This document shows, piece after piece, positions 1 through 60,296 of a stretch of DNA of 64,000 bases. Under the pieces are notes generated by a model, which searched no databases, had not been told where the DNA came from, and worked only from the letters and a program-made list of their open reading frames with translations. Positions within the stretch are counted from its first letter, which is position 1. Each line of letters begins with the position of its first letter. Source of the stretch: Candidatus Omnitrophota bacterium (GTDB taxonomy: Bacteria > Omnitrophota > Gorgyraeia > JAHJTE01); the NCBI GenBank assembly GCA_040753675.1, contig JBFMEB010000009.1, positions 3,407 to 67,406 of the forward strand, read 5' to 3'. The position numbers and the translations under genes are program-made.

Positions 1-1
1 G

Positions 2-870
2 GCATTTTCATTTGCCTCAAGTAGCAGGGCAGAGGAGATTGATGTTATTGTTAGAGTCCAGGATGATTTAAGAGATGATTTAGAGAGGATTCGTAATATT
101 CGCCTGGTAAATCGCGATGGCAATCTAATTTATTTAAGCCAATTTGCAAAAATAAATTATGAAAATCAATTTAACGAAGTTTATAGACAAGGTGGCAGAA
201 ATGCCATAAGCATTTTAATTGAACCTGATACTCGTCTGACTGATGAGAGAAGATTAAAAGCAGCAGTCAAAGAATTATGGGAGAAAGAAAAGTTAAATTA
301 CCGAGACCAAGATTTAAAATTTGGCGAGCTTGAACGAGAAGAAGATGAGGCAATGAAAAAGATTGGCTATAATTTTATTCTGGCAATAGTAGCCATTTGG
401 TTTATGACATTTTTAACTCTAAGAGCAAGTATTAGCCAGACATTTGTGGTGCTTTCAAGCATTATGTTCTCAACTTCTGGCGTTTTTGTTGCTTCTATTT
501 TGGTGGGTAGCCCATTTGAATTCTCTACTTTGGTGACAATTTTTGCTTTAGGTGGTTTAGTTGTCAACAATTCTTTGGTCTTACTTTATGAGATTAACCG
601 TTTAAGAGGCCAGGGATTAGAAAAAACTGCCTCAATATTAAATGCCAGCCAGTCAAGGATGAGGCCAATACTACTGACTTCGATAACCACATTGCTTGGA
701 TTCCTGCCTTTGGCAATAGGTATGAGCGGGAATATTCCTTTCTTTACTGCAATGGCTCAGGCCTTGACCTGGGGTTTAGGCATTGCTACTGCCTTAACCC
801 TCTTTATTACTCCTCTTCTTCAAGCAGTAGCTGATGATGTTATAGACTGGTTTACTCGGATTAGGAAAAG
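2..870 (+). other. Domain: RND (AcrB/HAE-type) efflux permease C-terminal half (periplasmic subdomain + TM7-12)
   Basis: The translated motif ...LLYEINRLRGQGLEKTASILNASQSRMRPILLTSITTLLGFLPLAIGMSGN... matches the conserved RND region (AcrB ...[21 protein letters not shown]...). Several TM helices flank it. Confidence 0.6.
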
Positions 871-3800
871 AAATAAGGATAAGACGATCACTAAGAACTT
901 TGGTTTTACGATGTTTGGTTTACCAATGGTGAGCCTTGTCGAGCCATTCTGGCTGCCTTTTGGTGCAGAGACAGTTGCTATATCTCTAATAATTCTAATC
1001 GGCCTCTATATTCTCGTCTCTTCCTTCAAGCAGCAGATATTGAATTTTGCATTAAAAAACAAAGCACCTCCAAAATTAATAAGAGCATTAAATCTCTCCC
1101 TCCTAGATTTGCATCAAGACGGAATTGCTATTATTGGTTTCGGAGATTGGTCCTCGAGAACATACCTTCCTAAATTAAGAGATGAATTCCCGCATATTCC
1201 TATCTATGTTGCCTTAACTGAATTTAATAAAGCAAAATTAAAAGCAATTAGACGCCAATATCCTACCATAAGAATTATTAGATGTGATGGAGATTTTAGT
1301 GGCAGGGCATCATATGAAGAGGTTTTTAAGAAGAGAAAAATAAAATCAGTGATTATTGCTACGCGCGATAAAAAATCCCACGATGAATTAGCCAAACAGG
1401 CAATTCTTGCCGGCAAACACGTTCTTGTTGAAAAGCCAATTGGAGGTGAGATAGCCCCAGAATTTGTAAGGCTTGCTAAAGAAAGACGAGTAGTTTTGGC
1501 TGTTGGCATACAGTATGTGTATGATGCTGCAGTGAATGCTCTTAGAGGCTATTTAGAGCAGATTGGCGAGCTGGAAGGCATAGCTTTGAGTTTGCTCAAT
1601 AAGCAAAAGAATAACAAGAAAAATATTATCCCGGTTTTTGATAATTTAGGCGTGCATCTCTTGAGCATACTACAGATAATCTTAGGCATTAGTGAAGCAA
1701 GAGACTTGAAAGTTGTCTCTGATGTAAGAGACTGGATGGACAGGGTTAGCTTAAAGTTTAATTATGCAGGCATTCCAGTGAGATTAGATGTAGATAGTGA
1801 TTATCAGGGGGAAGCTAATAAGCGAGAAGTATACATCAAGGGTAAAAAAGGATTCTTAATTTTAAACTTAGATACTGGCGAAATTCTGATACTTACGTAT
1901 GAGCCATTTAAGAAAGAAGTAATCAAGCCTGAAAGAAAAGATTTGATTTCTTTAGAATTAGCTGACTTCTTTAGGGCAATAGAGCAAGGCGCTAGCCCAA
2001 TCAACAGTGTCCAAAATACACTTTGGATTTGGCAGATAGCTGAAGAGGTAAGATCAAGAATTTTAGAGCAGGTAAATCTTAGGCTTTTATCAGGCCATAA
2101 TTGTCTGGTAATGCGCTTAATTGAGATTTTTGGGAGAGAATTCAAAGATGAGATTGTTGACTGGTATATTCGAGAAGGAATAAATTTAAAAATTGTTCCG
2201 GCATTCTGTTTAGCATTTATAGAAGCAGTCAAGTCTGGCAGAGAACGTCTGGGATTAAAAGGCGAAACAGTTAGCAGCATTATCGAAACAGCCATGCAAA
2301 AAACTAAACCTCTTGCTGAGAAGCCTACACAAGATTCTGATAATACTCAAGTTTTAAGCCATATCTTAGGAGTATTAACAAAAGCAAATTTAACAGAAGG
2401 TAAATTCATAGCTGATTGTTTAGTTAAGAGTAGGCCTGTTGATGAGGCAATTTTAGTTAGCGCTTTAGCTTTAAGAAGCGCTCAAAGCCAAGAAGTCCGG
2501 CGCATAGCAATAAATACATTATTGCACTACCAACCCTTAAGCCTGTTATTGCTAAGTCGTTATTTAGAAAATAGTGACGCTACTGGACGTAGGAGAGACC
2601 TTGTCGATGCAGCTTCATTAGCTAAATCGCCGTATGGGATTATTTCGCAAGTTGATTTTTCGCTTAATACTAATTACCACAGATTAAATGACAGAGAGAT
2701 TGCAGTTATTGAACAAAATGTGGGTTTAATAGAAGGAGCGATTAGCCGTCTATTAATTGAGTCTTCAGATGAGGCTTTAGGTCCAACCTATTACATTGTT
2801 TATCCTCAAAATGATAGTTATGGCGCAGAGGCATTTGCAAGCAGAGATTCTAAAGCAGGAGACCCGCACGTAATTAAGGCTCTTCTCAATGACTTTATGG
2901 CTGAAGAAATATTAGAAGATTTAGGCATTCATATAGAGTCTATAAGCTGGGATGATAGATTGTCAAGATTAGATATTAGAGAGTTCCAGCAAAAGCTAAT
3001 ACTTTTGGCAGATTCACAGGATGCTTCACAGGAAACTCGAATAAAGATTTTAAGATGGCTAATTATACTTGGGTTAGATGAGGCAACTGTCAGAGGTTTT
3101 AGAGATAGATGGAGAGTTGATGATTATCTTTTGGATATGTTTTTAGGCCGGCCAAGTGGGGCTAAACGAGATAAGGCCATTTTGTTATTACAGGCAAATT
3201 GCCTTATTGCTTGCCTGATACAAATCTTAGGCACTGAGCATAAAGATGAGGTTATTAAATGGTTTTTAGAGGCAGGCCTTGAGCCGATAGAAACCACAGT
3301 AATTCCTTTGCGGAAATCATTAGAGATTATTCATCAGAATTTAATGGGCAAGGTAATTGGGGGGATGAGGCTATTATGTATCAGCCGCATTGATGAAAAT
3401 ACAATACGCATGGTATTTGAAGATTGTAGTGGTGCTAATAGGCACAAAGTAATTTACATTACCAGAAAAGCAGAGATTCTCCATCATGCCCAAGTTCAAG
3501 ATTGGAAAGAGCCTAAAGTCCCCAGCGGCATAGCGTATCCTGATTTGGGAAATATGGTTAACGAAGATGCATTAGTAGGAGGTTCAACATCAGTTCATAT
3601 GCGGCACAGAATAAGAAAACCCTTTATAGATAGTTTGGCAAACCTGAAATTTATAGGCGGAGGTTTGGGTTTACGCGAAGTAAATGCTATCGTGAGGAAT
3701 ATTATAGAGGAATACAGAAACAGCGGCCTTAGTCCAGAGGAAGCGCTTTTGCGAGTTACTATGTTTATGCAAAGAGAAAAAGACGAGAGGTTGCTAATCT

Positions 3801-6800
3801 TAAATGAACTGGCGATTAAATTAAATATCGAAATTCTCTGGCAGGCAATAATAGAGCTGGATAGAGAGAGATTTTTAGCAGTGCGGAAAATCCTTGAAAA
3901 TAAATTTGGTTTTGTAATTTTTCCTTTTTTTGGTGAGAGAATAGACAATAGCATGAAGGGGACCTGGGCTGACAGGGCACTAACCAGCGAGATAATAGAA
4001 CAGTTTCCTCCTGAAAGCGGCACACGTTTTCCTTTTACCAAAAAATTAAAATTGGATGATTATTTTGAGGCAAGTAGGATTGACGATATAGAAATTTCTA
4101 CTTCTGAATTAAAAGAAGATATCCGCAAGCATGTCCCTGAGGGATTAGGCGTATTTATATTTAGGCTAATTACTGACGAAAATAACAAAACAGTACTTGA
4201 AACTATGGTTATCGATAACGGAAGAGGTTATGACCTGGAAAAATATTATGCCATTGGCCAGTCTGAAGAAGCGCCAAGAGAAACAACAGCAGCAGGTTAC
4301 GATGATGCAGACCATAGATTTAAAGAGGTTGGTCGAGGACATTGTATAGTTGCCTGCCTTATGCCGGATTTTGAAGTTAGGTCTCAAGATAAAATGTTTA
4401 TCCAGGAAGGTCGGACCGATTCAGTGGGTTTTGGAGCCACCGAAGAAATTGTCGGTAAATTTATTACTGATTTGCCTGTTATTGCTGGAACCCAGAAGCT
4501 TTTCCGCACATGGTCAGACAAGCCTGTTGCTACTCAGACAGCAACAGCCATTGAAACAATAGATGAAACAAACAAACAAGAAGTTGTCAAGCCAACTTTA
4601 ACAGAGCTATTAAAAACAAATGATGAAACATCTCAGATTAGAAGGTTATTAAGTTTTATATACACAGATAAAGATATTTTAACGCCTTCACGCAGAGAAT
4701 TATTTATTATTTATCAGACTTATGTGGAGACATATCATCATTATCCCTCACTTGCTGTATTAGCTGAGATTGCTTTGTTGACCAGAGAACGGGCAAGGCA
4801 GATTATAAAGGATGATATTAACCCTATTTTGCGATTTTTCGGCTTACCATTGCTTGAGCTTGATAAAGATTGCCAAAAAAAGACACTCTCGCAAGCAGAT
4901 ATGTTTAAGATGCAGGGGCTTTGGTATGAGTTAACATCAGGCATCAAGGTACCTGGAATTGAACTGAAGAATCTTAATAGCGTGTCACTTAGTGAAGAAG
5001 AGGCATTTCACACGACTCGGGTTAGGGAGTTGCTTATGGATATTGCCAATGAATTAGCGAGGACTCGTAAACCATTCAAAGAATTTGAAGAGATAAAAGA
5101 GAGGCTTTGGGGCTGCGGAAGAATAAAAATTGCTATTTTGAGGCGGTTTTATTATCTTGGTAAGTTAGAAGTTCCTATAAGCAATGAAGAAATAGCAAAT
5201 ATTATTCCTGTCGAGTTTTTGAATAGACTCCCTGCCTTGCCTGCTCGTAGAGGCCCTCGAGATGTGAACTGGAGAAGCCGCTCTGGCAGAGTTAAAAGCT
5301 TTAATGAGCCGTTTGTCGACTTAATTAAAAAGGCTTGTATTTCCGATGCTGAGTTAGAATTTATTTTAAACGTCGTTATTATTATTAAAGATTTACAGCG
5401 CAAATATTCGCTACATTCAATTTTCCGCAGACACAAAGGCATATTAAGCCCTGTTTTGGATGTTTTGGAAAATAATCTGGATTCGGCTCGCCACATTGCT
5501 ATAAAGCAGTGGTTAAGGAGGAAAGAATTAAAAGGAAAACTCGCAGAGTTAATCGAGGCCTTGGGCATAACCGAAAGAGATAAGCATGAACATAAAAGAG
5601 GTTTAAAAGATGCTGAGATTATTTGGCCAGAATTTAAGTTTCATCCTCGTACTATAACTGAAGAACAGGCAATGAGCCTGCCGTTAAGTAAGGGTGCTCG
5701 CCAGTTACTTATTGAATCTATAATATTGCAGCATCTAAAAGGTGGAATATATATAAGGCGCTGGGAAGATTTTTCTCAGATACGGGGTTACAGGCCATCT
5801 TACCTTGAAGAGTTTAAGCACTGTTTGCTTAATCCTACCATGCCTATTTCACAACGGATAAGAACATCTTCTGTTGCAGCAGTAGTTATGCCAGGGGCTT
5901 TGAATATATTTAACTTAGATAATCCGGATATTTTGACTTTACTCGTTTCTCTAATATTCCTCATTCCTTTTGCATTAGCATTTTATGGCGTTAACGCTAA
6001 TCCAACAGAATTATTAGTTAATAGTGCACCTGACTCAATAGAGAGAAAACGCTTAGTTTACATATATAGGGAATTGTTTGATGATTTAGACAGAGAGCGG
6101 TTCATAATCCACCAGGCCTATCTTTACAAGCATGGTCAGTATCCTAAATATGACTTAATTGCTCAGTTGAGCGCAGCGCCGGGCTCTAAGCCGGCTACTA
6201 AAGAAGCAATCCGCCAAAATATCGCAGAGATTAACGCGATATTCAAATTTTTCAATTTATCCGGTTTAGGAGTATTAAAACGAGGAGTATGGATTCCTAC
6301 AGAAAGAATCAGCAAAGAAGATATAAAAGAGATGAGAGAAATCTGGGAGGCATATACAAGAGGTGTTGAATATGTAGAGTCTGAAATTATTCCAAAGAGA
6401 GATAGCCGAGCTATTTCATTAGAAGAGGCCAGAGAACTTCCTCACAGATTTGGCCGCAATCTTATGGTTAGAATAATAAGAGCCAGACAGCGAGGTAGAA
6501 AATTTGCAAATATTAAAGAGGCGCTGGCTAAATTAAAATTAAGAGGAAATGAAGTAGGGATGGCGAAAATTTTAGAAAAACTCTTCTCTTCTATTCTATT
6601 TTTATTAGTGGCAGGAACGGCTTTTGATAACACCTATTCATTATTTGCCATACCTATTATTCTTGGCTTGACTGTTAAGGTTGGGGATATCTCTAAAGAA
6701 GCTAATGAAGCGTCTTTAAAGGATGCTATTGAGCAGTTAAGAGGAAGAGATATTGTTATACTTCAGATGGAATATGAGTTATCAATGAGATTTTTGAAAG

Positions 6801-9800
6801 AATTTTGCGGTTATTTAATAAGAGATTTGAGATGTTCATTAAAGGATGCAGTATATAACACAGGAGAAGTAGCTAAGATTCTTATGGCCGGCGGCTTGGG
6901 GAGTTTTAAACCTGATTTAGTAAAAGGTTGGTACGAGGTCTTAGGAGAACATTGGAGTGGAGTTGAAGCAAGAAAACGCCTGCATGTTTTTGGCATATTA
7001 TATTCTTCGGCTATTAAAGGTCAAGGACCTATAAAGCCACGGGGCTTATCATCGGATTCCAATATTATTAATCTGGTAAGAGGAGCTTTGCAGAAGGTTA
7101 AAGTTTATAGAGGCATAGAGCTTAATATGAATGGCGTAGGTAAGGTTGACGTAGAAATCTATATGAATCCTTATTCAGAATTAAATGAATATTGGCTTTA
7201 TTGCCCGCATGTTTTTCATGAGGCATATTGTGGTGAACGAGATGATGATTTTAGGGCTGTGCAGAGCTTATTATATAGAAAAGTGGTGTTAAGATTTATT
7301 AAAGAGGAAATGAATGAAGGCCGTATTAGTAGAGTCCTATTATTTTCAACCAGCGAGGTAAATACAACATTAGCAATTCCAGCCGTGGTAGACGATGAAT
7401 TTAAGGATGATAAAGATTTTAGCAATATCCTGATACATCATTACAATCACACAATAGTTCCTGCAGGAATCCCTCGCTATAACTGGTATCTTTTTGACGC
7501 ATTAAATATAGCTGAACAGCTCAGAAAAACCATCAAAGATGGAAAGATAGATTTAATCAGTATTACCGGAGAAGTCTGTGATTTTATTACCGGCTGCTCC
7601 AAAGCCCACACCAGAAAGCTTCGAGAAGAGATTTTTGCAAAATTTGCCCAAAAGGTGCTGGAGGATGATTTATTCGGAAACAGTGAAGGCTCGGATATAG
7701 AACGCTGGCAAGGCGAAGCAATTGGGGAAATTATTAAGAAATATATGAGAGAATCAAGTGTTGACGATTATAGCAGTTTGTTTAAAGCGTTAGAAAGAGC
7801 AGAGTCTCTCAAGCTTAAATTTATGGATGAGATATTAGCTGCTAAAAGGCAACAAAAGAGGGTTTTTATTGATGAATTATTGCAAGGGACATTTGGCCAA
7901 ATAAACTTTACCACTGAAGATTTAGAGACAGATGCAGTTGAGCTTGAAGATATGCCGTTCTTTCCATTTGTTAGGAGAATGGTGCCTTATAAGTGCGCCG
8001 ATCTTATTGTAGATATCCTTTATAACCCTGATTTTAGAGAGAGGATTATAAAGAGTAGGGCAATAATCTTTATTGGCGGAAGGAAATTCGATGGGTTTGC
8101 TGATATACAAAAGAGAAGGATTAAGAAATTAATTGAACTTGATAGAAGAATGAAATATCACATTATATTTATTGAAAATCACAATGTATTCACTTCTTGG
8201 ATTATTCAGCAAGGCACAGATTTTGGCGGAATGCTTTCCTGGAAGGATAAAGAGGCAGGACCAACCAGCCCTACCAATTCAGAGCAGAATTTTTCTCCTA
8301 CAGTCGCCACTAGTGACGGCGTAATTGATGAGAGGGTCGAGCAGATAAAGAGAGATAAGCAAGGTAAAATAATTAGCGGCAATGGATATATTGTGGCCTA
8401 TGGAAATGAACGCTCGCCTACAGGCGAGATTATGCCGGATAGAGAATCTTTAGTAAGCGAGATTGAACAGGCCTGCTCAGATTATTTTGATAGAGACAAT
8501 TATAAGGAAGTGGCTTTCAATGCCGGAAAAACCGGAATGCTTGACGGCGATATTCGTAATCAAGCCAAAGGCCTACTTCGGCTCTGGGGACAGCAGTTAG
8601 CTAAAAAGATAGCTTATCCTGCAACAATACCTGTCTCAGATGAGCCAGATAGAAAACCTACTCAGGGAGAATTAGATAAAGTATATGAGATTTTTGGCGG
8701 CTTTGGAAGGATAGATATTGATGAGAATAATTTAATAATCAGTCCCTCCTTAAATGCCCCTGCAGAAGTAAAAAATGGCTTACTTTACGTTAATCCTAAT
8801 ACACTACGAGGGCCGCCAGAACAATTAAGAGTAATTTTTGAAGGTCACGAATTATTCCACTTATTATATCCGCAAAAATCAGACCAAGAGGCCCGCCAAT
8901 TCACCATTCAATATCTCCTCAAAACTAATTTACTATTAAGCCATATAGAGTTTCTCACTAACAATAATCTCAGTTTAATTCCCAAAGCCGATTGGTTGGC
9001 CTCATTAAAGAATGAGGCAGTGGTTTTGCTATCTGATTTAGAGTGGATAAAAAATAACATCAGACTCGCAGGCTCAAATACCGATGAATTAAAAGCTGCC
9101 CTTGGGCTTAAGACATTGTTTGATGGACGCTCAACTATAGTATTTTTATCTTCTGATGAGCGTTACATTATAAAGGTTTACAAATATGCGACAGCTAAAT
9201 ATGAGAGAGAGAAAGAATTTCTACAGGAGCTAAATCCAACATTAAGGCCGATGCTCTATTATTATGATGATAAGGCACAGGCCTTAGTTACGGATAATCT
9301 AAAAGCCCTCGGCTTTACAAGTCTTTTTGAGTTCATGCAGTCGCCAGATATATCTATAGAAGAATTGAGAGTTGTTATGCGTTTAGCAGCCGGAGCATTA
9401 GCCAGAATTAATATACCTCAAATGCCTGCTCATTCAGCGCCAATACTTGATATCTCTGATGAAATAAGAATTTTAAGAGACGCAGGCTTTAATGATTTGC
9501 CCGATACCAATTCTGTTAAATTGCCACAAGATGATTTCAAAGAACAAAAGGTTGTTGCTCATGGCGACTTCTCTCCTTGGAATATATTTGTAGACCCAAA
9601 GAGTGGTCAGATAGAAGCAGTCATTGATCCGGAGTCCGAGCGTTTTAATACTCACAGTAGAGAACTTGTTGCTGCGATTGAAGGATTGATAGATGCGCGC
9701 AAGAATAATCATTTGTTAGTATTACATATAGGAGAGCTTGTATCTGAATTTATAGACGAATATACAAGGATAGCCAATATTGATAAAGAGAAATTATATG

Positions 9801-12800
9801 CGCGGCTGCATTACATTTTAGCCAGCCAACTGTTAATTGATGCATATCAATTTTATTGGAAGTGGGGAATGAGAGAATGGGCACAATGGAGAATAGCCCT
9901 GGCTAAAAAATTATTAGTCATGAAAAGATTTTCTATACCCGGCTTAGAAAATATCTTGAATGTTAATTTAGGACAAGATGTTATTGTTTGGGCAGGAGGC
10001 GTGGATACTGATTATGGACCGGTTTCTGGAGTTAGCATAAACTCTAAGATAGGAGAGAAAATAACTTTGTATGTCCGCCTTAATATGCGCGATGTAGATT
10101 ATGAACCACTTATTGCAACAAACATTATTGCTCAGGTTTGGACTGATATTAACTCTGGAATCTGGCATAGTGAAGGACTCCTCGAGTTCTATAAATATGA
10201 AGACGGAAATTACTTATTTAAGGGAAGCTTGATTCCATTTGTTCCAGGAAAGTCTGAGTTTACTGTTAGATTCTCTACTGATGGAGCTACTTGGCATTAT
10301 GCAGAAATGCCTTACGGCAACGGCATAATTATGGCTCAAGATAGTTCTGATGATGCCTTAGATAGATTCCAGGTAAGACTTCAAGAGATTATCGATAGAG
10401 GAAGTATGCCGATAGTTTTTGTAGATATGGATTATACAATTACTGAATCTTTTGGCTCAGAATTAGTTGATAGAGTAAAAGATGCACTTAAAGAACTTTA
10501 TCTTAGGGGTGGAATCTTTGGCTTAAATACTGCAACAGCTATTGATGGGGTAAAGAGGCAAGTACTAGATAGCTTAGGTGGATTATTTAACTTCTCATTT
10601 ATGATTATTGAGATAGGTAGAGAAATTTATGCCTGGAACGAAACTGAGAAAAGATATATTAAATTACCGATTACAGCTACGACTAAAGGAAAAGCAATGA
10701 GAAAGTTAGCACATTATTTAGGCGTAAGTTTAGAAGATTTTATATTTATTGGAGATTTCCCAAGCATAGGAATAGATGATTCAGTCTTAAGGGAGAAATT
10801 AGGAATAGTTGTTGCCATAGGCAAAAGTAGATTGCCTGAGACTATCAAGACAAAGCATTCAGAAACCTTGTTGATTAAACCTCTTAAATTAACTCCTCCG
10901 TGGGTGGGGCCAGAGGCAACAGTTCAATATATAAATCGACTTATTTTAGTTTTAGAAAGAAATAAAATTAACCAAACTCGAGGCCCACCATCTCCTCCAT
11001 TATTTAATTACCCAGCTAAAGTAAGGCGAACTGAATCAAAGAGAGAATTTCAAGATGTAGTTACGCTTGTTTGCTTTGATGAAGCAAAGAAAGTATATTT
11101 TAGCGGGCAAAACAACTTAAGAGAAAAAATCGGCAGGGCTGAGTTTATTAGGTTAAAAAGAGCGCTCCTGAAAGCCATAAGAATAATTTCAAGAGAATAT
11201 CCTTATATTTTTAATGCTTTAGTTAATAGAAAGATGCGCCTGCGCTTATCTACTGAAATTGAACAAGCCAGTTACGTGACTGCACACGAGTTGGTTATCA
11301 ACATTGATTGTTTAAGGCCTGCTAAGGAAGAAGCACAAGATTGGGAACTTGCCCTAATCGGCATATTAGAACATGAATTTGCCCACTTAGAAAATCCTCA
11401 CCTTCACGAATCCCAAGTAAGACAGCATAGTATTTATTTTTATCAAGGTCACCTTGATATCTTACAGGCAACAATAAGCCAGTTTGAAAAGGGCTTTCTC
11501 ATTGACCCAGAGTGGCTTGCAATCCTTAAGAATATAAAAAGAATAATTGTTTTAGAGAGATTCTGGTCTGAGGTAGCAAAGACTGAATTAGTAAAAGAAT
11601 TTTTAGAGATAAAATTAGACAGATATAGAAGCAGCAAAGCTCGAGCCCAAGACCTAATCGCTAAGGCCATAAAGAGATTTTCAAGCATACTCGCAGATTC
11701 CGGAGTAAACGAACAGCTGGTAAAGAAATTTGAACATATTTTCTTTGAATATGACAGCGTAATTATCGTCTATAAACTGGGCAGCTCAACTTACAAAATC
11801 ATCTGCATAGCGAAGAGAGATATATTAGATGCATATAGTTCAGATTCAGTCAGCCAGAATATTTTCAATGCTGAAGTGCGCACAAGCATTTTTAGGGACA
11901 ACGGTAAGCTTGCCTTTGGCTATATTAGGAAACTCTTGATATATCAAAATGACCCGCAACTGTATCAGATTATATCCTTGCTTATTTCTAATAATACTCA
12001 CGATGTAAGACGAGCAATAACTATCATAAAAACAAAGCTTGCTAGGGGGGAGAGTCCAGAGACCTTAAAAGAACTTTTGTACGCTAGTCTCTATTATTGT
12101 CACAATCCACAATGGGGAGTGAGTCAAGACATTAGAGTTATGATGAACAAATTGCTTGAAGATATAATAACTGAACGACCACTTACATTTCCTCAGAGTG
12201 TGATAAATTTAAGCGTGTTTAAAGGCCAAACCCAGACGATTAGAATTAGTTTGCCGGTTAACTTCAATCCTTTAGTTAATAAAAAGATGAGTCAAAGATA
12301 TCAGGCGAGAATCAGGCTATCAATAAACGGCAAATTAAAGAAGCAGGCCATACCCATGGCACTTGATTTGGATAATTCTAACGAGGCAGAGATAGCTTTT
12401 GCCACTGAGGTAAAAGCGAAAAAGGGCTGGATTCATTACACTATCCAGATCTCGAAAGATGCTGGAAAAACCTGGGAATATGAATTAGTTCATCCTTATT
12501 CAAATGGCTTGATAAAAGTTATCGCTGATGAGCTGGGTGAAAGAGTCTTAAGTACTTATGCAGATACTTGGAATTTGCATCTTGATGAAAAATTGTCGCC
12601 ATTAAAAGATGAAACTGGCACTTATGTGTATGGGGCATTCGATGATTTAGCAAATCAGCTTGAGGTGATTAAAAATGAAGGATATTCACGTATCTACCTT
12701 TTAGGTGCCTTGGAATTGGGTTGGGCAGGTGAAGCCGGTCCTGATCCTTCTGTATTCAGCATCTGGGATGGGGTAACTATTCGTCGGGACTTAGGCGGCT

Positions 12801-39800: not shown

Positions 39801-42800
39801 GGATACATTTAAGCGCGCCAATCAATAAAACTATAACATTTACCCCTGGCACAAAGACAAGGATTCTGATAACCAGAATAAACATAGAACCATTAAGAGC
39901 CGGTGTGCGTACTGTTAGCGCAATACCTATAACAGATTTTTCTAAAGATGCTGATACCGATATTTTTAGGGAGAGGTTTAGTTTAGATGGTGAACTTTTA
40001 GATACGTTCTGGTTTGATTTTCCAGGACAAGACGCTGATTTAACAGTCTCAATAGGAATAGAATCATCAAACGATGCATATAAACGGAGAATATCTGTGG
40101 CTGGCAAGCCCTATTTGGTATTTGCAAAGGCGAAGAAGCATATGGTGTTAAAAGAAGCTGATGAGCCCCTCTTCGCTATGCCGATAGAAAGTATTGGGCT
40201 GGCAAGGAGGGTTGCTCGTATAACCTCATATACCCAGAGGAAGATATTTACCTTGATTAGGGTATTTCCAGGCGACGACGGACTACCAAGCATATTGTGG
40301 CGCATAGCAAATAAAATGTCCGATAGAGATAGTATATCGATAGCGAAAGTGGAGAATTTAACTATTCGTAAGTATCAGAGAAAAGATTCAGCGAGAAAAC
40401 TGGATACAAAGGGCGTAACGAGATATATAGTTGCCTTTGATGAGAGATTCTTTTTGAAGAGTGGCGCAGATATTAAAGGATGCGTTGATGGTTGGTTTTT
40501 AATTAGCAAAGATCAGCCACCAGCGCTTATTTTTTATGCGCAGTCTGGAAGAAATGATGAAAATAATTTATTTGGGAATATTTTATTATTTGACCGTTTT
40601 GGGGTTTTTGTCCGTACCGGTAATGCTGTGCCAAACGTTGATGAGATTAATGAACAGCCTTTTAATGGCAACTTTCTTATTAGTAGAAAGCAATTGTTTG
40701 GCAGCAGTAAAGCCTTGTATTGGAAGATAAGAACATCGAAAGGAAGACTTAAAACCTTGAGATGGTGTTTAGGCAGCTCTTTTAAAGAGAACGAAGTTAC
40801 GCTCTTAGTAAAGGATGGTTTTCCCCGGATAGCGCTTAGTTGCCCTGATTGGGAAGCAGGTAATCTTGATGCAGAAATATATTTATTAGAATTCAACGAA
40901 AAAACTCATCAGCGCTCAAAATCAATTGTTTCGCTCTTTGATCTGACAAAAGTTGATTATGAAATAGGCGTAAGATTATGCGCGGAATTAATCCTCCAGG
41001 ATATATTATCAATAGTTATGGAGAAGATTTATATCTCTACAGGCTACAACCACAATAATTCAGATTTAAATGTTAGAAGAAAAATGTTTATTTTAGCCAT
41101 CAAATCAGCTCTTATGCCTAAATTAAATATTTTTTCTCTTTCTAAGAAGACGTATTCGCAATTATTGCGATATTTAGTTGATGAGATAATAAGAAATATC
41201 GATGCGGCAATAGAAGGATTAGATGTAACTGAGCAAGAAAAAAAGACGGTTTGCAATTTAGTTAAAAATGTTGCTTTAAGGAGAATAAAAGCGCTCGCAC
41301 CGGAACTTTCAATTTTGGCAGATTTAGAAAAACTAAAGGATATCGCTATTCCTAAAGCTAAAAAGAGTTTTCTTGATTCTATGGCCAATAGGATGAAACC
41401 AGAGTTTGCTCAAGCATTCACAGATTTGTTTGGCTCTAAAATGGATTACGAAACCAGGCTGGCAATTTTATATTTATTATTTAAGACATTCTCATCAGCG
41501 GAAGCGCTGGGACAGGAATTGATAAGTCATCTAAGAAGCACTTTGTTAGAGAATATTGAGGCAGATATCAGAATGGCTAAGCAGATGAGCGAAGAATCAG
41601 ATTTAGGTAAGCTTGTTCAGACAGAAAAAATTCTTGAGAACATTAATTTGATTATAGGCTTAAATTCAGAGTTGGCTGTGTTTAATATAAATAAAAATAC
41701 TTTAGAAGAAATTACAGACCTATTAAGCAAGGTTAAAGCTAAAATTAGACAAATTAAAGAAGAGCAGTCAGGATTATGGTTAAAGAGAAGAGAGGTAAGT
41801 TTCTTATTAGATAAAGTGAATATTCTGCTTGATAATCAACAAAGATTAAAAGCAAGTACGCTATTGGCAGCCATAAAAACAAATTTATCAGAACAAGCTT
41901 CTTTAGAAAGAGAGATCTTAGGCGAGAGAAGCGATGAGCTTAAGGCTTTGGTAGCTAGATTTCATGTTGCTGAAGAACGATTAAAAGCAATTTCGCAATA
42001 CCGCACAAGAAGACCAGGACCGATATATGGTTTATTATTTTTAGTGTTTGCCGCCGAGTTAATTCATAATTTAATCCACCCTGCCACAAGTCCACAAGTA
42101 CTCACCGCTGGTTTTGGCAGTCTGCCACTCTGGGGAATGATAATTGGCTTGGGAGTGGTTGTAGGGTTTGGTTATTTATTAAGAAAGCAGATTTTGAAAT
42201 ATCTGATTAATCACATATTTAGACAACCTCACTGGGTATTCCATGGTGGTACGCTTAATAGATTACCTCTCATAGTTAGATACGGACAACTTATGTCTTA
42301 TTCAGCATCTGCCTTGCTGTTTAATAGAGAGGTAACAAGAAACAGACAAACCGAATCGCAGAGATTGACTCTTAAATATAAAGAAAAAGGATATGGGAGG
42401 ATTAGAACTTTTGCTCATTTATTTTGGAATATAAACATAATGTATAGATTTAGAACCAACTTCAATTATGTCTATTTAACAAATACCTTAAGACATGCCT
42501 GCTATGAGAGCAAAAAAAAACTTAATGCTTTACATGTAAGCAATGAAAGTAGGGGAGAAATTTTTGATGGGGAAATAATTCTGATATTTTCTGGAAAAGC
42601 CATTGAAAATTCTTTAATTGATTATTCATTTGGCAGACTTTTCTCTGCTCTAAAAGGTTACCTGCGATTTTCTTCTCCAGTTGATTTATCTTATTTAAGG
42701 GCGGTTATTGTAGTTAATGGACGCAAGAAGGTTATTGAGGAACTCTTGGTTCAGAGTGGTTATGATGATGTAGAGGTCATTGGAGTTGAGTCTTTTGATT

Positions 42801-45800
42801 TATTACAAACAGAAGAAGGCCAAAGCTACATCAGTGCACAGTTGAGAGGCCGCGGTCGCCAACTGGCGGGCCTTTCCAACCTCCGTGCCCGTGCAGCGGA
42901 TTACAGCAATTTATTAAAAGGCATCTCGGCATTGCTATTAAGTTCTATCTTAGCTGGGGCAGTGTATGTTCTTGCAAAGCCGATTATGCAGGAATATGCG
43001 AATATGGGCGAAGCAGCTGGCTGGGTGCCGATACGTATGCTATTTACCTTTGCCTTAGTTGCAACAACAGTTTTATTTATCTATCAGTTAGCTAAAGAAA
43101 AGTCAATAAAGACAGTATTTAGACCTAAACTTAAACACAGTGAATTTGGATGGATTGTTTTAGTCGGCGTTTTTGGTTCATTCCTGGCGGCAACTTGTAT
43201 TTACAGCGCGGTTAATCTTAGCACGCCGTTTCTGGCAGCGCTTTTTTATTCACCATTTGTTCCAATAATAGTTGCTTTACTCAAGCATAAACTAAATATT
43301 CCGAAGACAGTATTCTTTGGCGTGCTGTTTGGCGCATCCGGGATTGCGCTTTCAATTATTGCAGGTAAGGGTAGTGCTGAAATAGTTACGTTTAGCGTTT
43401 TAACTCTATTAGGGATTGCTGTAGCATTTATAGGCACTTTCTTTTTCGCAACAAGCTTACTTCTTATTCAACGTAAATTCTCATCTAATCAAGGTATTGC
43501 CTCTACACAGATTTTGTTTTTTAGCTCAATAACTTCTTTGGTTTTGTTTGGTATAGTTTTATTAGTTTCTAAACTTTCCCCTATTTTTGAATGGAAGATT
43601 CTTGGTTTAGGTTTAATGCGCGCTACATTTTTATTATGTAGTATTTATGGAATCCGCCTTTTGCCAGCTTCTTTGGCTGGCGTGTTAGCAGGAACAATTC
43701 CGATATCAGTATTGTTATTTGAGCAGGCAAGTTTAAGCGCCAGCGCTTGGTTTTTAGAGGCGCTTGCCTTGTCAATGGTTCTGTTCAGCGTCTGGCTTCT
43801 TTCGCCGAGAAATGAGAATACGCAATTATTTGAGAGAATTCAGAAGTTAATTAACAAAGGTAGGCAAAATGAAACTTCAGCCTACGAGCTAATGGATGAG
43901 ATTGAAGCTCTGGGTGAGGCTTCTGACGTTGTCCGGGCATTAAAAACCATAAAACCAGCTGATGAATATGAAGAGACAATAATTTTAAATTCAATATTAA
44001 AATTAGGGAGCTTAGAAGATTTAGAAGAGTTGGGAGAGGAAAAAATAAAGGCTTTGATTGAAGAAGGTAAATTTGGCTTTACAGTAACAAACGAAAATAG
44101 CAAAGAAAAGATTTGGATTCATCTCAGAGCTCTGGAGCATATTTTGGCAAGCCATAGTGAAAACTATTTAAAATTAATGAAGTTGTGGAAAAACTTTGTC
44201 TTTTCTAACCAGGTTACTTTAGATCAGATTATTATTTTAATTAGAGAAACTTGTCAAGAAGGTTATCCTATCTATTACAGAGGAGCGAACCACTGGTTTA
44301 CATATGTTTGGTATGTAGCAGACTATTTAGCTAAAAAAACTGGAATACGCCGTATGGAAGCGAGAGTTAGAAAGCGCAAGAAAAATACATCATTTTCAAG
44401 CTTGGCAACTGCCTTACCAACTGCTGGTAAAAACTTCTTGATATTAATTAGAGGAGAGAAATGTTCTAACTTTGAAAATGATCTATTTCCAGCGAGAGTA
44501 AAGAACATATTTGATTTGCGACGGATTAATTTATCCTGGTCGAATATGAGACTGATACTTAAGCGCATAGGTAAGAAACGAACTGGCGGTAGATGGTTTT
44601 GGTCAGGAGCTGCGCCAGAATTAATTGAAAAGGCAATATATTTAACAGCCAGATTTGGTAGGTATGCTGGCAATTTTACAACACCTAAAGGCAGAGATTG
44701 CGCCGTTTGTAGAAACTACCGCTTACCTCTTAAATTGCGATTTAAACTAAGAATTTTTGCTTTAGAGATACTGGTTGCAGAAAATGGATATGTGCACGAT
44801 GCCTTTCCAGTTGGTATCAGACATCTTATCAGAGATACGATTAAATCAATCCCAGAGAAGCTGGGTGGTAGCACTTTAAAAAATAGATTGTTAAAGGTAA
44901 TTTTATTTTCAGCTATTTTGAGTGTGGGGTTATATTACAGTGGAATTTTTTCATTATATTGGTCGTTAAAAGATACAAATCAGTTTTTCTTTAATATAAT
45001 TACAGCGACTATATTTACTGCGCTCTCAGATTTGCTATCAGTGTATCTTTCTAAAAAAAGACAGCATTATCCAATTCTAAGACTACCTTTTGAGCTGGCT
45101 ATAGGTGCTGCCGCGGGTCTTATCTTTACAATCTTTCAGCATTATATTATTGAAGCCTATTTTCCTAAAGACCAATCTTCTTACTTCATTTATTTTGTAC
45201 GGACCTCACTACTATTTTCAATTTCAGTATTCAATATGCTTATATATGCATTTTACAAAAAATTTGAAAAACGGTTATTTAAGATTTTTGACAATGCAAA
45301 TTTAGGAAAAATTATATTTGATGTTCTTGTTTTTAAAGCACTTATTGGTTTATTCAAATATCCTTTCGCTGCAATAGTACTCGATCAGAAAGACGTATTG
45401 GTTTTCTTTTATGGCTTGGATATGCTTAAGGTTGGGGTTATGGTTTGGGCGATAAATAAAGGTGTACCATTTTGGAATTTGTATGACAAGTGGGGCATTA
45501 ACAAAATAATAGCTTCATTAAAGAGACTATTTACTGGGAGAAAAGATGCAAAAGAGAAAGAATTGTCGATTGATATAACTAAAGTTAAATTAGAAGGACA
45601 GGAAGACGTTATTAACAATTTAGCTGAAGCTTTAAGAAGACTATATGAAACAATGCCATTTAGAGCTGCTTATCTTGTTGGTTCAAGGGCAAAAGGCAGA
45701 CAATCAAATTCTTCTGATGTTGACCTAAGGATAGTAATTAATGATAGGTCTGACGAAGCCAGTTTATTAGAAGCAATAAATAAAATATGGTTGGAAATTG

Positions 45801-48800
45801 GTGGCGGCAGGACAAAGTTAGATGCACATATATTCAAACAAAGCGATATTTCATGGTTTATCTGGGAAAAGATTTGCAATTTACTTTCTCTTAATATCGC
45901 AACTTGGCTTTGTATGAAGATTATGGATTATAAGGTTAAGGTCGCACAAGAGAAACCCGTGAATTCTTCCGAAACCGCCAACAACTTTATTCAAAGGCTC
46001 TGGCAACGGATTAGGAGTCATTGTGTTATTGTAAGCTTTGGCTTGGCGATATTGTTATCAGCGCTTTACCATCTTATTCGAGGAGGGACGTTGGGAGAGC
46101 TAGCTCAAGGCTCAATCCTCGCCTTTGCCGCGACAATAGGCATCGCCACAGGGAATTTAGCACAAAGCACTTATTATGATGAGCGAAAAGTAATGAATAT
46201 TCTTGGCGGAAGGATGTGGGTAGAAAGCAGAGAGATGAGTAAGGAGCAGCAATTACAATTAGCGCGAGAAGTTCAAGAGAAAGGCAACCTGGCAGCGTAT
46301 TGGGCGCTTGTTTATTCTTTACAATGGTATGCAGAGGACTTTGCAGCCAAACATAATTCAAAGGATTTGCCTTACGATGATTGTCTCGATGTCTGCATCA
46401 GCGCTATCTATTATGTTGCCAGGATATATAACTCCACCGCAGGTGCTCGCATAGAAACATTGGCTTTCTTAAAATTTAACTCTAACTTAAGGACAGCATG
46501 GAAGGATAGACAAAAGGATATCTCTATCGGAGACTTGTTAGAGGAAATTTATAAGGATAAGGTGGGTGAAAAGAAACATCCCGATGAATCAAGTATTCTG
46601 TTGACTCGTCAGCAAGCAGAAAATTATTTAATTAGACTATTAGAACCTCTTGGATTAGATCCTTTTGGGAGAAACCAAGAGGTATTTATTTTAACAGCTA
46701 TGCATAAGGCTGGAATAATTAAGATGCCTCGCTACCAGATAGCTGCTCGCTATGGTTTAAAACCCTGCAGTATTTCAGATATATGGGAAAAAGTCAGAAC
46801 AAAATTCTTATTTTATTATAAAAGGCATGCCTTGCCGCATATTTGGGAATGTCAGATTAGTAGGAACGGAATTTCCAATAATAGCTCACTGGTGTCAAAT
46901 CAGGCTCAACATCATCATCAGCCGAATATCTGGGAATCTGAACTCGGGCCGACTGATGGGAATAGGTTTGGCAGATGGGCATTTTGGCCGGGGTCAAATT
47001 CAGATGGTAGATTGGAGATGGCAGATGGCAGTTCTCGGTTGTCGGATATGGCTGTGGATGGATTGATTGAAAAAATTGAGAAGGAATCCAAGCCGCCAAA
47101 GAGAGAAGAAGATACGAATAGCCGCAGGCGGCGATTAATAAGATTTTATGAGGCCCTGTTAGCGCTTTTAGCAAAACAAGGTATTTTTGAGGGTCAGACG
47201 CTTATCTATCCTGCTGCTGGCCTTGATATTGTTCCAGGCGCTTATGTTGATACTATAGTAATTAATCGCGATGAGTTATACAGTGCTGCTTCTGGTTTAT
47301 TTATTCGCGATTTTGAAAGATATACTAAGCGATTGAGATATGTTGCTGGAGTGTTTGCAGGAGAATATGGAGGTGAAATGGTTAATGCATTACGGGTAGA
47401 TTTATATAATAGATATATTGGCCCAATAAGAACTTCACATAAAACAGTTCTCCTGAAAGGATTTTTTGATTATGCTGCACAGATTCCCGAAGATTTCTTT
47501 GTTTATCTTGCTGAGCTTGATAGTTTTTTAAATCCAGGTGACAGAATTATATTAATGAATCTTAACGAAGCAAAGCACGTATTAAGCCATTTATTGCCTG
47601 ATAGATATAGAATAGTAGATAGTTGGTTATCCAGAGAACAAAAATCAAAATTGCAAGCTGCATTGGCAAGGATGGTTTCTAGAAGAGCAAACTATAAAAA
47701 CCAGTTCCCGAGTTATTCGAATAAAAAAGATTCATGTTGGCATTTTCTAATGCCAAATACGGTTGTTATTTTAGAGAAAGTAGGCGAGCCGGGTTTAAGA
47801 GGGCATTCTTTAGTCCAGCGACATGGGTTAGAGGGTTTAGATTTTCCTAATCCAATGGCTTCTGAATTTTCTTCTCATCGCGTTGCGAATTGGCCTGGGC
47901 CTGAAGGATGCAACGGCAATGATTACGGCACGCAGGTGCCAGGATCGTGGAGACGTTCAAATAAGCCAACAAGGAGAATTCCTGTATTTAATTGGAATAA
48001 TTGTACTATCTCTTTAGGGGCGGTGGGAATGGAGAAATTTACGTTCTTTGCTCAACCGTTCAACGAGCCAATAACGTATGAGGGACAGGTATCCAAGTCC
48101 CTTGCGAGAAGCAATTTCTTTGAGAGAGGTAATCTGGTTGGTATCCAATCGCAGAGAGATAAGTTTCTTTTTTGGCCTGACGAATTCTACCTTAACTGGT
48201 TTGAGTTCGTCCAAAAATTCAGTGATGCTATGGGTATCCCAGAATCGGCGTTCTTCTTCCAGGGATTTTCCCGACAAAGTCGGGATCCCGCTGACTTTTT
48301 TACCTCTACTGGTGCGGGAAAATTTAGGGATATGTTTAATCTTTTTCATTTTTATTTACCTCCTCGCATATCTTCGACGCCAAGTATATCTGTATATACA
48401 AAAGATGTCAAGAAAAATCTAGGAGAAGACAGGAATCGCGGCTGGGATGGCCCAGATCCAATGGCCTGCGAATTCGGACCTCATCGCGTGGCGAATTGGC
48501 CGGGATATAATTCAGTAAAGGATAAGAGTATTAAGATTTTTAGAAGCGAAGGAAGAATAATAGTCCAGGGCGAACCAGGGGCGTTTAGTGTTTTTGAAGA
48601 AATTTTAGAGTTAGACCAAGTCTGGGTTACTGGGCTTATAAAGAAGTCAATTGAAGTTAGAAATCGAGAAGATTTAGAAGATATGTACGGATATGATAGG
48701 TTGCCACAAGCTTGGATTTTAGATAAAGAAATTAATATTTGGTTTTCAGAAAATCTTTCTGAGCCGTTTATTTGTCTTAATAATAGGGCTATTGCTGTCA

Positions 48801-51550: not shown

Positions 51551-51612
51551 ATGATTACATCTGTGTTTATCTGTCGCATTTGAATCTGTGTTCATCTGTG
51601 GGAGAACTTAGT
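51551..51612. repeat. Word-repeat array: (c/t)atctgt(g/c) x4 at about 10-nt spacing
   Basis: catctgtg, tatctgtc, aatctgtg, catctgtg between the giant-ORF stop and the PilZ-ROK start. Confidence 0.6.
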
Positions 51613-53033: not shown

Positions 53034-53414
53034 ATGGAAGATAAAAGAAGACATAGCCGTTGGCAGTTGGCAAGTAATCTTTTAGTAAGAGAATCTGGCA
53101 CAGATAGCGAAGGATTCCAGGCAAAAACGAACGATATTAGTATTGGGGGATTATGTTTTCTTTCTCCCAGGATGATTGTCCATCAGACAGAATTAGATTT
53201 TGTTATTGATTTTCCAGATGAGAAAAATTCCATCTTTGCCAAAGGCAAAGTGGTTTGGGAGAAAGAGAAGATCTTGGACGACCAACAACGGGTTATTATG
53301 ACAGGGGTTAGTTTTGATATCCTTCGCGATGCTGATAAGGAAAGAATTTTTAATTATGCCTATAAATTTTGCCGAGAGGATTTGGCAAAAAAATGGTGGC
53401 AGGGGGTGAAATAA
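53034..53414 (+). CDS. PilZ-domain protein (c-di-GMP receptor-like)
   Basis: KRRHSRWQLA and TNDISIGGLCF motifs. GGGGGA RBS. A good sigma70-like promoter lies upstream. Confidence 0.65.
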   Translation: MEDKRRHSRWQLASNLLVRESGTDSEGFQAKTNDISIGGLCFLSPRMIVHQTELDFVIDFPDEKNSIFAKGKVVWEKEKILDDQQRVIMTGVSFDILRDADKERIFNYAYKFCREDLAKKWWQGVK

Positions 53415-60244: not shown

Positions 60245-60296
60245 TGCCTTATCAAATAAATAAGGGTTTAATTCAAAAATTAAAGTGCAAAAATCT

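Follow-up and report, generated by a model that had tools for sequence, protein, structure and literature searches.

The stretch of DNA considered here (the window, 64,000 nucleotides of contig JBFMEB010000009.1, assembly GCA_040753675.1) carries an open reading frame (ORF) that enters at the 5' edge and stays open for more than 51 kb. This giant ORF is a true gene of Candidatus Omnitrophota bacterium, coding for a very long protein, and that protein very probably belongs to the giant multi-enzyme membrane proteins of that phylum. Several of its modules equal complete genes that stand alone elsewhere, and by extension to the remaining modules, the ORF can be read as an in-frame string of such genes. 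Taken jointly, this identification and a mechanism in which the chain would serve as a membrane-tethered scaffold give the best overall explanation, with a probability of roughly 0.6.

A continuous coding frame

Frame +2 of the window is free of TAA, TAG and TGA from nucleotide 2 to 51547, i.e. over 17,182 sense codons or 51,546 nucleotides, and the remaining five frames hold from 814 to 2,118 stops each across the window; within 1..51547, the two other forward frames meet a stop every 9.6 and 11.3 codons. At 38% guanine plus cytosine (GC), a stop is expected at a frequency of 0.0726 per codon, which gives such a run a probability of about 10^-562, and the longest stop-free run obtained in 200 shuffles was 149 codons. 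All 1.5-kb blocks of the ORF display a period-3 peak as well as a GC content decreasing from the first to the second and the third codon position. Codon usage of 3-kb segments correlates with that of the rest of the ORF at 0.89-0.96, and codon usage of the entire ORF with that of six ordinary downstream genes at 0.91, the off-frame controls reaching 0.40-0.46. The tetranucleotide profile is flat along the ORF and, together with the uniform codon usage, reveals no compositional sign of a chimeric join. A preliminary description of the window, made from its letters alone, had claimed that a stop-free frame of 51 kb cannot arise by chance, that the other five frames are full of stops and that the frame is coding throughout; the run probability and the shuffles, the stop counts and the signal found in every 1.5-kb block, respectively, bear these claims out.

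An artefact or dead DNA, with unrelated contigs joined into a chimera during assembly or an open frame devoid of function, could be suspected from the source of the sequence, a metagenome assembly, from the 73% of the chain that is without a match and from the fact that the assemblies of all four relatives presented below break inside their giant ORF. Every chimeric join would need to be in frame and stop-free, however, and an open frame of this length is excluded as a chance event by the above probability. Besides, the uniform codon usage and tetranucleotide profile agree with those of the neighbouring genes, the catalytic residues are conserved and the organisation of the locus is identical in four independent assemblies, so that an artefact is extremely improbable.

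Modular organization of the chain

The protein was compared with Pfam and NCBIfam as twenty overlapping 1,000-residue pieces and, divided into four pieces, with PDB sequences; residues are numbered from nucleotide 2. Seventeen Pfam families appear between residues 9 and 16,939 (Table 1), none of them in more than two copies (GNAT and the EamA halves), in agreement with the mosaic of unrelated domains put forward in the preliminary description. The accompanying statement that recognisable motifs occur along the whole length holds for their span but much less for their density, the covered share of the chain amounting to only 14% for Pfam matches at E <= 1e-3 and to 27% when all lines of evidence are pooled. 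Motifs are intact in the carbamate kinase (signatures), in AAA_18 (P-loop), in YkuD (His/Cys motif) and in the GH13-like enzyme (triad). The search of residues 4801-9600 against PDB sequences returned nothing, and neither Rfam families nor tRNAs were found in the entire window. Repeat-driven expansion of the ORF was considered and rejected, self-BLAST disclosing no meaningful tandem repeats and a single sizeable, diverged duplication.

Units with the demonstrated or presumed extent of a whole gene are the RND permease, a GH13-like/glycogen-synthase-like protein of ~1,800 residues, the guanylate-kinase-like domain, the carbamate kinase, the nucleotide-kinase-like domain, the EamA transporter and a signal-bearing LysM-YkuD protein. 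They are connected by long stretches in which no family was recognised and by about 30 isolated hydrophobic helices.

For the GH13-like/glycogen-synthase-like unit, an exhaustive HMMER search with residues 4801-6000 retrieved 474 relatives, the best of which, P0121, is the product of a gene for 1,849 aa on a contig of 56% GC, with an in-frame stop just upstream of the start and a TGA at the end; past the last residue of P0121, the giant protein continues straight into a transmembrane (TM) helix. Although Pfam recognises nothing in the N-terminal half of the module, this half is conserved in about a dozen large proteins, and in a 13-sequence alignment, H4291, R4358, D4360, H4363, E4424 and D4491 are near-invariant, three of them forming the motif R4358-x-D4360-x-x-H4363. 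The catalytic Asp, Glu, Asp and His of GH13 enzymes are among these conserved positions. An AlphaFold model built from an 8-sequence alignment reached a mean predicted local distance difference test (pLDDT) score of 67.7, and its top PDB matches in Foldseek are all GH13 enzymes, namely neopullulanase (1j0h, E 1.6e-16), GlgE (4u33) and maltogenic amylase, with TM-scores of only 0.3-0.4 in line with a mediocre model. The predicted structure is taken as confirmation that residues 4040-4830 carry a GH13 fold. Downstream of it, the GlgA models jointly cover nearly the full profile, TIGR02095 from position 15 and NF001898 up to position 476 of 477.

The GH13-like plus GT5/GT1 block of the giant protein is collinear over 1,500-1,800 residues, at 27-41% identity, with P0121, P0125 (4,485 aa) and P0135 (7,625 aa). 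Like the giant protein, P0135 combines the block with a guanylate kinase and a phosphorylase, its content being NUDIX, guanylate kinase, GT5, phosphorylase, GH77 and GDE_C. Unlike the giant ORF, of which the block makes up only 10% of the chain, the genes of these three proteins are ordinary, bounded and 2-10 times shorter, on contigs of 47-57% GC; as P0135 and P0125 indicate, large alpha-glucan 'super-enzymes' thus exist on contigs with a GC content unlike that of the window. The P0125 gene (L005 3423-16880) has housekeeping genes as neighbours and sits between rpsP-trmD-rplS-rnhB and folate genes, and the P0135 gene lies at L007 8982-31859.

Near the other end of the chain, LysM and YkuD together span residues 16765-16939, the latter with the catalytic motif HG...DGCIRM. 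The sequence before them, SSSSS-MGRRDFLVGGLGFLVGLALTPLDVLAA-TKKK, comprises a Met, the motif RRxF[LIVM], a hydrophobic core and an Ala-Ala site, the signal start reading Met-Gly-Arg-Arg-Asp-Phe-Leu. The motif RRxF[LIVM] is found once in the entire protein, and one occurrence is what would be expected by chance in a chain of such length and composition, according to an estimate made in the course of this analysis; it is informative because it stands behind a Met and directly before a hydrophobic helix and an exported enzyme. These residues read as a relic initiator Met followed by a twin-arginine-type (Tat) signal peptide, and residues 16703-16939 as a whole give the appearance of an entire gene for an exported L,D-transpeptidase that was fused in frame.

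Translation and membrane topology

The possibility that the ORF is a string of genes translated one by one was considered and dismissed. Of the 239 in-frame ATGs, 4.6% have a Shine-Dalgarno-like motif in front of them, vs. 7.4% of all in-frame positions; being rarer than the background, these motifs give no sign that modules are translated separately. For M16703, at the putative start of the L,D-transpeptidase unit, no Shine-Dalgarno motif was found either.

Along the entire chain, ~50 non-overlapping hydrophobic 19-mers occur (Kyte-Doolittle >= 1.6), ~32 of which lie outside the RND and EamA bundles. Helices with Lys/Arg (K/R) upstream directly follow GlgA (5484) and the carbamate kinase (TM helix 10752-10770). 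Neighbouring helices that both have K/R upstream are those at 5484 and 5672, at 8557 and 8622, and at 9062, 9429 and 10752 (about 16451-32311 in the window).

The 5' edge and the junction with the RND permease

Of the 12 TM helices and two porter loops of a full RND (HAE1-like) efflux permease, the window shows TM8-12 and the second loop, which are 32% identical to the free proteins, the N-terminal three quarters falling upstream of the window. A scan of genome and metagenome contigs with residues 1-700 yielded distant Gfo/Idh/MocA matches only. BLASTP aligns this segment with residues 750-1036 of the 1,037 residues of P0001, which means that a free-standing RND permease ends at residue 297 of the giant protein. 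As had been noted before, the frame is open at nucleotide 2 and RND sequence is contiguous with the ORF, the ACR_tran match lying in the translation of nucleotides 2-892. The claim that the gene is larger than what is visible is right for the sequence as assembled, where the frame runs off the 5' edge, but depends on the RND junction and its run of four A. With a source contig of 68,204 bp, at most 4.2 kb and hence at most ~1,400 further codons extend beyond the window; the gene has at least 17,182 codons and would encode ~17,930 aa if it started with a complete RND permease.

The RND end and the rest of the giant ORF are joined across only ~7-13 codons. One A added to the A4 run at 866-869 would make the RND frame terminate in ...TRIRKKK*, exactly where free RND permeases end, and a signal-anchor-like segment begins at M304. 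The RND permease could thus be a separate gene and the giant protein a complete one of 16,879 aa, starting at ATG 911 (M304) with an N-terminal hydrophobic anchor, the fusion resulting from a one-base assembly error. All of the best 120 homologues of the RND segment (query residues 1-1200) being stand-alone permeases of ~1,040 aa, and an open frame across so short a junction being cheap, there are points in favour of this reading; it is rather unlikely nonetheless, as the given sequence has no stop at the junction, four-A runs are seldom miscalled in short-read assemblies and no Shine-Dalgarno motif precedes ATG 911. Moreover, in-frame capture of whole genes is seen elsewhere in the ORF, with LysM-YkuD and its Met and signal, and with EamA in mid-chain.

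Comparison with known giant proteins

In Omnitrophota, giant ORFs are those of > 20 kb (Seymour et al., 2023), and proteins of at least 10,000 aa and at least 30,000 aa have been termed large and giant, respectively (West-Roberts et al., 2023, 10.1101/2023.11.21.568195); sparse annotation and poor conservation characterize the Omnitrophota giant ORFs (PMC10066038). The ORF of the window exceeds 20 kb and 10,000 aa, encodes multiple TM helices according to a crude predictor, and has sparse domains and poor conservation. Its likening to the Omnitrophota-type giant genes in the preliminary description is upheld by these published class features and by the downstream proteins, which match entries from an Omnitrophota metagenome-assembled genome (MAG).

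In a catalogue of 916 proteins of at least 10 kAA, a class called 'multi-enzyme metabolic cluster' has been described (Nielsen and Lui, 2026, 10.64898/2026.06.07.730766), PF08323, PF00534, GNAT and HAD being among the commonest families, GH2 recurring in the flanks and 80% of clusters at 30% identity being singletons. The ORF of the window best fits this class, and does so on every feature tested, while also resembling the Archaeovorins. With the former, it shares the phylum, many distinct families of which none is dominant, TM helices that are sparse and scattered, PF08323, PF00534, GNAT and HAD, a GH2 gene in the flank, a near-unique sequence and membrane anchoring as judged by hydropathy. 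It differs in size, with at least 17.2 k residues vs. up to 147 k in the catalogue, in having no type II secretion or pilus genes in its visible flank and in the prominence of carbohydrate import at its locus, a weak signal in the catalogue. RND, EamA, LysM and YkuD modules are reported neither by West-Roberts et al. nor by Nielsen and Lui.

Archaeovorins are characterized by HEAT, GT5, GT1, GNAT and FBPase/sugar-phosphate enzymes, many TM helices and nearby carbohydrate importers, with extracellular wall degradation as the proposed role (West-Roberts et al., 2023, 10.1101/2023.11.21.568195). Like their type, a protein of 39,678 aa from Velamenicoccus archaeovorus LiM, the giant protein of the window has HEAT, GT5, GT1, GNAT and FBPase-like domains, weak TPR matches, numerous TM helices and adjoining carbohydrate-import genes, and is devoid of dockerin and TSP3 at E < 0.5. 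Its 17,182 visible residues remain below the threshold of 30,000 aa for giant proteins, which makes the visible part a 'large' protein in that terminology, although the chain may be longer if the ORF reaches the end of the contig. Archaeovorins also have methyltransferase, NUDIX, glycosyl hydrolase and peptidase domains. In the visible part, no NUDIX or methyltransferase was found at E < 0.1, nor any SecA family, described for most members, at E < 0.5 in the 20 tiles, although very divergent copies could escape Pfam. The GH13-like enzyme is recognised only via alignment and structure, and YkuD is the sole peptidase-like fold in the visible part; the C39/S8 peptidase of Archaeovorins usually lies near the N-terminus, which falls outside the window, and C39 is not in the visible part. 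While the role proposed for Archaeovorins is extracellular, the modules found here look mostly cytoplasmic.

Multi-enzyme fusions and membrane-threaded viral polyproteins, which serve as an analogy only, also have several enzymes per chain and internal signal or anchor helices between units. In the giant protein, by contrast, nothing indicates that the enzymes follow the order of a common pathway, that a protease is devoted to the chain or that the chain is processed, and its scale is 10-50 times larger; unlike the nonribosomal peptide synthetase and polyketide synthase megasynthases, it has no repeated module logic.

Genomic context and syntenic relatives

Downstream of the giant ORF, genes on the same strand encode PilZ-type regulators, a GH94 phosphorylase, components of a sugar importer, an MFS transporter and a GH2 enzyme (Table 1). 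The PilZ (MEW6008669.1), GH94 and binding proteins are 100% identical to GenBank proteins of a 'Candidatus Omnitrophota bacterium' MAG, all three encoded on one contig of 68,204 bp, and the named relatives of the GH94 protein among the 120 listed (64-86% identity) are all from Omnitrophota; both observations place the giant ORF in an Omnitrophota genome.

Table 1. Features of the window, in order of position; residues are those of the giant protein.
Feature	Residues	Nucleotides	Strand	Evidence or remark
Giant ORF		2..51550	+	Open at window 5' edge; stop TAA 51548-51550
RND (AcrB-type) permease, C-terminal quarter	1-297	2..892	+	Pfam ACR_tran profile 754-1018/1021, E 1e-43; PDB RND chains
Junction A4 run + ATG 911		866..913 (A4 at 866-869)	+	In-frame ATG 911 = M304, opens hydrophobic anchor MFGLPMVSLVEPFWLPFGAETVAISLIILIGLYILVSSF
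Gfo/Idh/MocA-type sugar dehydrogenase, UDP-GlcNAc 3-dehydrogenase-like	375-673	1124..2020	+	Pfam GFO_IDH_MocA E 4e-13; NF040723 profile 29-287/302
Alpha-glucan-phosphorylase-like fragment	2645-2788	7934..8365	+	TIGR02094 E 2.5e-5; weak Pfam Phosphorylase; P0135 residues 4854-5064
APH-type kinase domain	3048-3231	9143..9694	+	Pfam APH E 1.3e-6
HAD/Cof-type hydrolase (weak)	3472-3585	10415..10756	+	Pfam Hydrolase_3 E 5e-4; TIGR00099
GH13-like + glycogen-synthase module	3685-5485	11054..16456	+	P0121 residues 14-1849, 41% identity
Divergent GH13 alpha-glucan enzyme (predicted)	4040-4830	12119..14491	+	No Pfam match; N-terminal beta-sandwich, barrel, C-terminal beta-sandwich
Glycogen/starch-synthase-like GT5 + GT1	4842-5385	14525..16156	+	Pfam Glyco_transf_5 E 1e-22; Glycos_transf_1 E 2e-9
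Internal duplication	5706-6140 and 6201-6627	17117..19882	+	32-39% identity; includes HEAT match; TM helices flank
HEAT	about 5892-5963		+	HEAT_2 E 7e-6; 26.7 bits, just below 27.7-bit cut-off
Class II fructose-1,6-bisphosphatase (GlpX)-like fragment	6995-7080	20984..21241	+	Pfam FBPase_glpX E 6.5e-7; TIGR00330
First GNAT acetyltransferase	9210-9276	27629..27829	+	Pfam Acetyltransf_1 E 1e-6
Guanylate-kinase-like, full-length	10204-10392	30611..31177	+	TIGR03263 profile 1-177/180, E 7e-22; PDB guanylate kinases
Carbamate kinase, full-length	10423-10742	31268..32227	+	TIGR00746 profile 3-308/309, E 1e-68; PDB 1e19_A 5-313/314, E 3.5e-45
Second GNAT acetyltransferase	10998-11103	32993..33310	+	Pfam Acetyltransf_1 E 1.5e-8
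Nucleoside/nucleotide-kinase-like P-loop domain	11877-11992	35630..35977	+	Pfam AAA_18 E 5e-9; NCBIfam kinase models; GKSGAGKT intact
EamA/DMT-type transporter	14306-14600	42917..43801	+	Two Pfam EamA repeats; 9-10 hydrophobic helices
Pol-beta-type nucleotidyltransferase	15205-15316	45614..45949	+	Pfam NTP_transf_2 + Polbeta
L,D-transpeptidase: signal, LysM, YkuD	16703-16939	50108..50818	+	LysM E 3e-6; YkuD E 1.6e-20; PDB B. subtilis YkuD
C-terminal domain, ending ...WLKETFPEVF	16971-17180	50912..51541	+	Shared with L011 giant, 26-37% identity
PilZ-HTH-ROK (NagC/Mlc-like) regulator, first gene after giant ORF		51615-52925	+	PilZ domain fused to HTH and ROK
Two small single-domain PilZ genes		53034-53414; 53416-53745	+	
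GH94 phosphorylase		53966-56407	+	GenBank MEW6008672.1 (AB1629_03465), 100% identical
Sugar ABC binding protein		56915-58210	+	GenBank MEW6008674.1, 100% identical
Two ABC permeases		58374-60244	+	
MFS_2 transporter		60665-62191	+	
GH2 enzyme		about 62157 to window end (64000)	+	

The same organisation, i.e. a giant ORF followed by three to four PilZ genes, GH94, a binding protein, two permeases, MFS and GH2, recurs in L008/L009, L011 and L015, whose GH94 proteins are 79%, 81% and 70% identical to that of the window, respectively. Their giant ORFs have 10,268-11,957 visible residues and reach to within 0-133 nucleotides of the contig end, so that all are truncated. While the proteins encoded in the flank keep 62-91% identity between the window and L008 or L011, the last 1,637, 2,484 and 2,348 residues of the relatives' giant proteins share nothing with the giant protein of the window or with one another (BLASTP E < 1e-3), and the recognisable modules differ, L008 having LOG/lysine-decarboxylase-like domains and L011 Tpt1/KptA. 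The sole exception is the C-terminal domain ending in ...FPEVF, ~210 residues long and all-helical, which the giant protein of the window has in common with that of L011, where two copies occur (4288-4950 and 6778-7452), one of them terminal and one internal. HPxWxExxWKW, AYYYxDPxN and WLxxxFPEVF are invariant motifs of this domain, which has no Pfam or NCBIfam match and for which a single-sequence AlphaFold2 model, with a pLDDT of 50, was unusable. The comparison thus indicates a fixed locus at which module content turns over very fast with respect to the flanking genes.

The contigs of the relatives all end inside the giant ORF (L008/L009 1-4914, L011 1-7455, L015 1-7046), 30.8-35.9 kb upstream of its stop. 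The only sizeable internal duplication of the ORF in the window lies ~31.7 kb upstream of its stop, and a repeat-induced assembly break in the relatives is possible. All syntenic relatives have three to four PilZ genes at the equivalent place, a hint that cyclic di-GMP (c-di-GMP) may control the giant ORF or the sugar operon. Within the 64-nucleotide spacer between the stop of the giant ORF and the PilZ start (51551-51612), a direct repeat, imperfect and reading ATCTGTGTTTATCTGT ... ATCTGTGTTCATCTGTG, immediately precedes a GGGAGA ribosome-binding site.

Besides, several insertions and repeats mark the flank. Between inverted arrays of 7-nucleotide CTAAA/TTTAG-type repeats (56431-56896) lies a gene for a four-helix-bundle protein of 119 aa (56471-56830, TIGR02436, E 3e-20), and a second inverted pair of such repeats, gene-less, is located at about 60290-60480, before the MFS gene; the gene and both repeat pairs look like a small cassette or an element akin to miniature inverted-repeat transposable elements. 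At the MFS/GH2 junction (62087-62188), a tandem repeat with a period of 18/33 nucleotides, in ~3-5 copies with 85-87% matches, encodes a K/E/R-rich stretch. In L014 (3212-6685), a gene of 1,157 aa with a Hint/intein domain is inserted between GH94 and the binding protein, and in L008/L009 (7158-9749), a HEPN plus nucleotidyltransferase pair, toxin-antitoxin-like, and an AAA_14/DUF4143 gene stand between PilZ and GH94, which indicates that the conserved flank accepts insertions.

Proposed mechanism and alternative explanations

The mechanism proposed, to which odds slightly short of even are given, is that of a membrane-tethered single chain acting as a scaffold. Translation of a single mRNA, beginning at one start, would yield a single chain, whose insertion into the inner membrane would be co-translational, with the helices acting as start- and stop-transfer signals. 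With the topology set by these helices, the enzymes dependent on ATP, NAD, acetyl-CoA and sugar nucleotides would come to lie on the cytoplasmic face, and both the porter loops of the RND permease and the LysM-YkuD end would reach the periplasm, where the latter could bind or cross-link the peptidoglycan of the cell itself. The outcome would be a membrane-tethered metabolon coupling sugar/alpha-glucan storage (GH13-like, GlgA-like, phosphorylase-like and FBPase-like enzymes, sugar dehydrogenase), ATP/nucleotide housekeeping (carbamate kinase and other kinases) and transport (RND, EamA). The giant ORF adjoins, and may be co-regulated with, genes for c-di-GMP-sensing (PilZ) regulators and an operon for the uptake and phosphorolysis of beta-glucosides (GH94, ABC importer, MFS, GH2).

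Several points weigh against this overall picture. About 73% of the chain is without assignable fold or family, and for residues 560-3000 (2,441 aa), a word-prefiltered search of 5.8 billion proteins returned no homologue at E <= 1e-5. Two families often seen in published giants, SecA_DEAD and C39, gave no match at E < 0.5 in the visible part (20 overlapping tiles), and the RND fusion hinges on the length of one homopolymer (A4, nucleotides 866-869). In the guanylate-kinase-like domain, the P-loop is degenerate (SPSAAGTDS instead of GxxGxGK[ST]), so not every module is catalytic. As to the membrane, the helix topology derives from a crude hydropathy scan and not from a trained predictor; among the 32 isolated helices, the K/R bias is N-in for 19 vs. 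11, and several neighbours are both N-in, contrary to the strictly alternating topology of a single chain, which means either that helices were missed or that internal signal-anchor-like elements are present. Lastly, a twin-arginine signal 16,700 residues into a chain could not act as a Tat signal without cleavage of that chain, the alternative being a helix that is an anchor only. Of note, MAGUK proteins, whose GK domains bind proteins and are not catalytic, offer a parallel to the degenerate P-loop, and MAGUK GK domains are among the PDB matches.

Some of these points lead to a polyprotein, in which one chain would be made and then cut into an RND pump, an EamA transporter, soluble enzymes and an exported L,D-transpeptidase, by signal peptidase after the internal signal-like helices and by another protease on the cytoplasmic side, the ORF amounting to a single-start operon whose stoichiometry is fixed. 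RND permeases function as trimers and EamA is a compact 10-helix unit. A released RND pump and EamA transporter would be easier to picture, and the modules correspond to complete genes with topogenic signals of their own, e.g. the relic Met, RRxFL and A-A site before LysM-YkuD; isolated helices are in excess N-in and signal-anchor-like, some consecutive ones being both N-in, and cleavage by C39 or S8 has been raised as a possibility for giant proteins (West-Roberts et al., 2023, 10.1101/2023.11.21.568195). This charge-bias count is crude, however, and helices were possibly missed; besides YkuD, the visible 17,182 residues contain no protease domain at E < 0.5, and no recurrent cleavage motif or linker was found at the module borders. 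The peptides that map to the giant ORF of Velamenicoccus archaeovorus show translation and leave processing undecided either way. Altogether, a polyprotein is considered unlikely.

Another interpretation, that published for the class (Velamenicoccus archaeovorus, Archaeovorins), would make the giant protein a predation or attachment coat, with most of the chain outside the cell, where it would bind and digest host or prey cell walls. LysM and YkuD do act on peptidoglycan, a GH13-like glycosidase is present, the flank holds GH94, GH2 and sugar importers, and rapid module turnover would suit a surface molecule engaged in an arms race. The recognisable modules mainly need cytoplasmic cofactors, though, namely ATP/ADP for the kinases, acetyl-CoA for GNAT, a sugar nucleotide for the GlgA-like enzyme and NAD(P) for Gfo/Idh/MocA. 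YkuD is known to cross-link the wall of the cell itself and not to degrade walls, adhesin-type repeats (dockerin, TSP3, discoidin, laminin_G_3) were not found at E < 0.5 and type II secretion or pilus genes are absent from the 12.4 kb downstream. For the giant protein of the window, a coat of this kind is thus held to be quite improbable, and the membrane-tethered scaffold with its enzymes mostly on the cytoplasmic face is preferred.

Concluding remarks

Giant ORFs represent several percent of the very small genomes of Omnitrophota. The one presented here goes beyond the published descriptions by the evidence that modules equal genes, by a putative relic signal peptide and by the opposition of a conserved locus to a variable gene. 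It is unusually readable, as it lets assembly from complete genes be followed module by module, from a pump and a transporter to glycogen-type enzymes, an ATP-yielding carbamate kinase and an apparently exported wall enzyme, and the module set at this one conserved locus differs completely between close relatives. The mapped modules give handles on the choice between scaffold and polyprotein as well as between cytoplasmic metabolon and predatory surface coat. A bolder concept, speculative and with little likelihood attached to it at this stage, is that of a growing 'operon in one polypeptide', for which whole genes, among them transporters and an exported enzyme retaining its initiator Met and twin-arginine signal, would be captured in frame at a fixed locus and swapped so fast that relatives whose neighbouring genes are roughly 60-90% identical have hardly any modules in common, the resulting chain being threaded through the membrane and cut at signal-like helices. 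If true, it would be the cellular counterpart of a viral polyprotein and a hitherto unreported mode of organisation and evolution of gene expression in bacteria.

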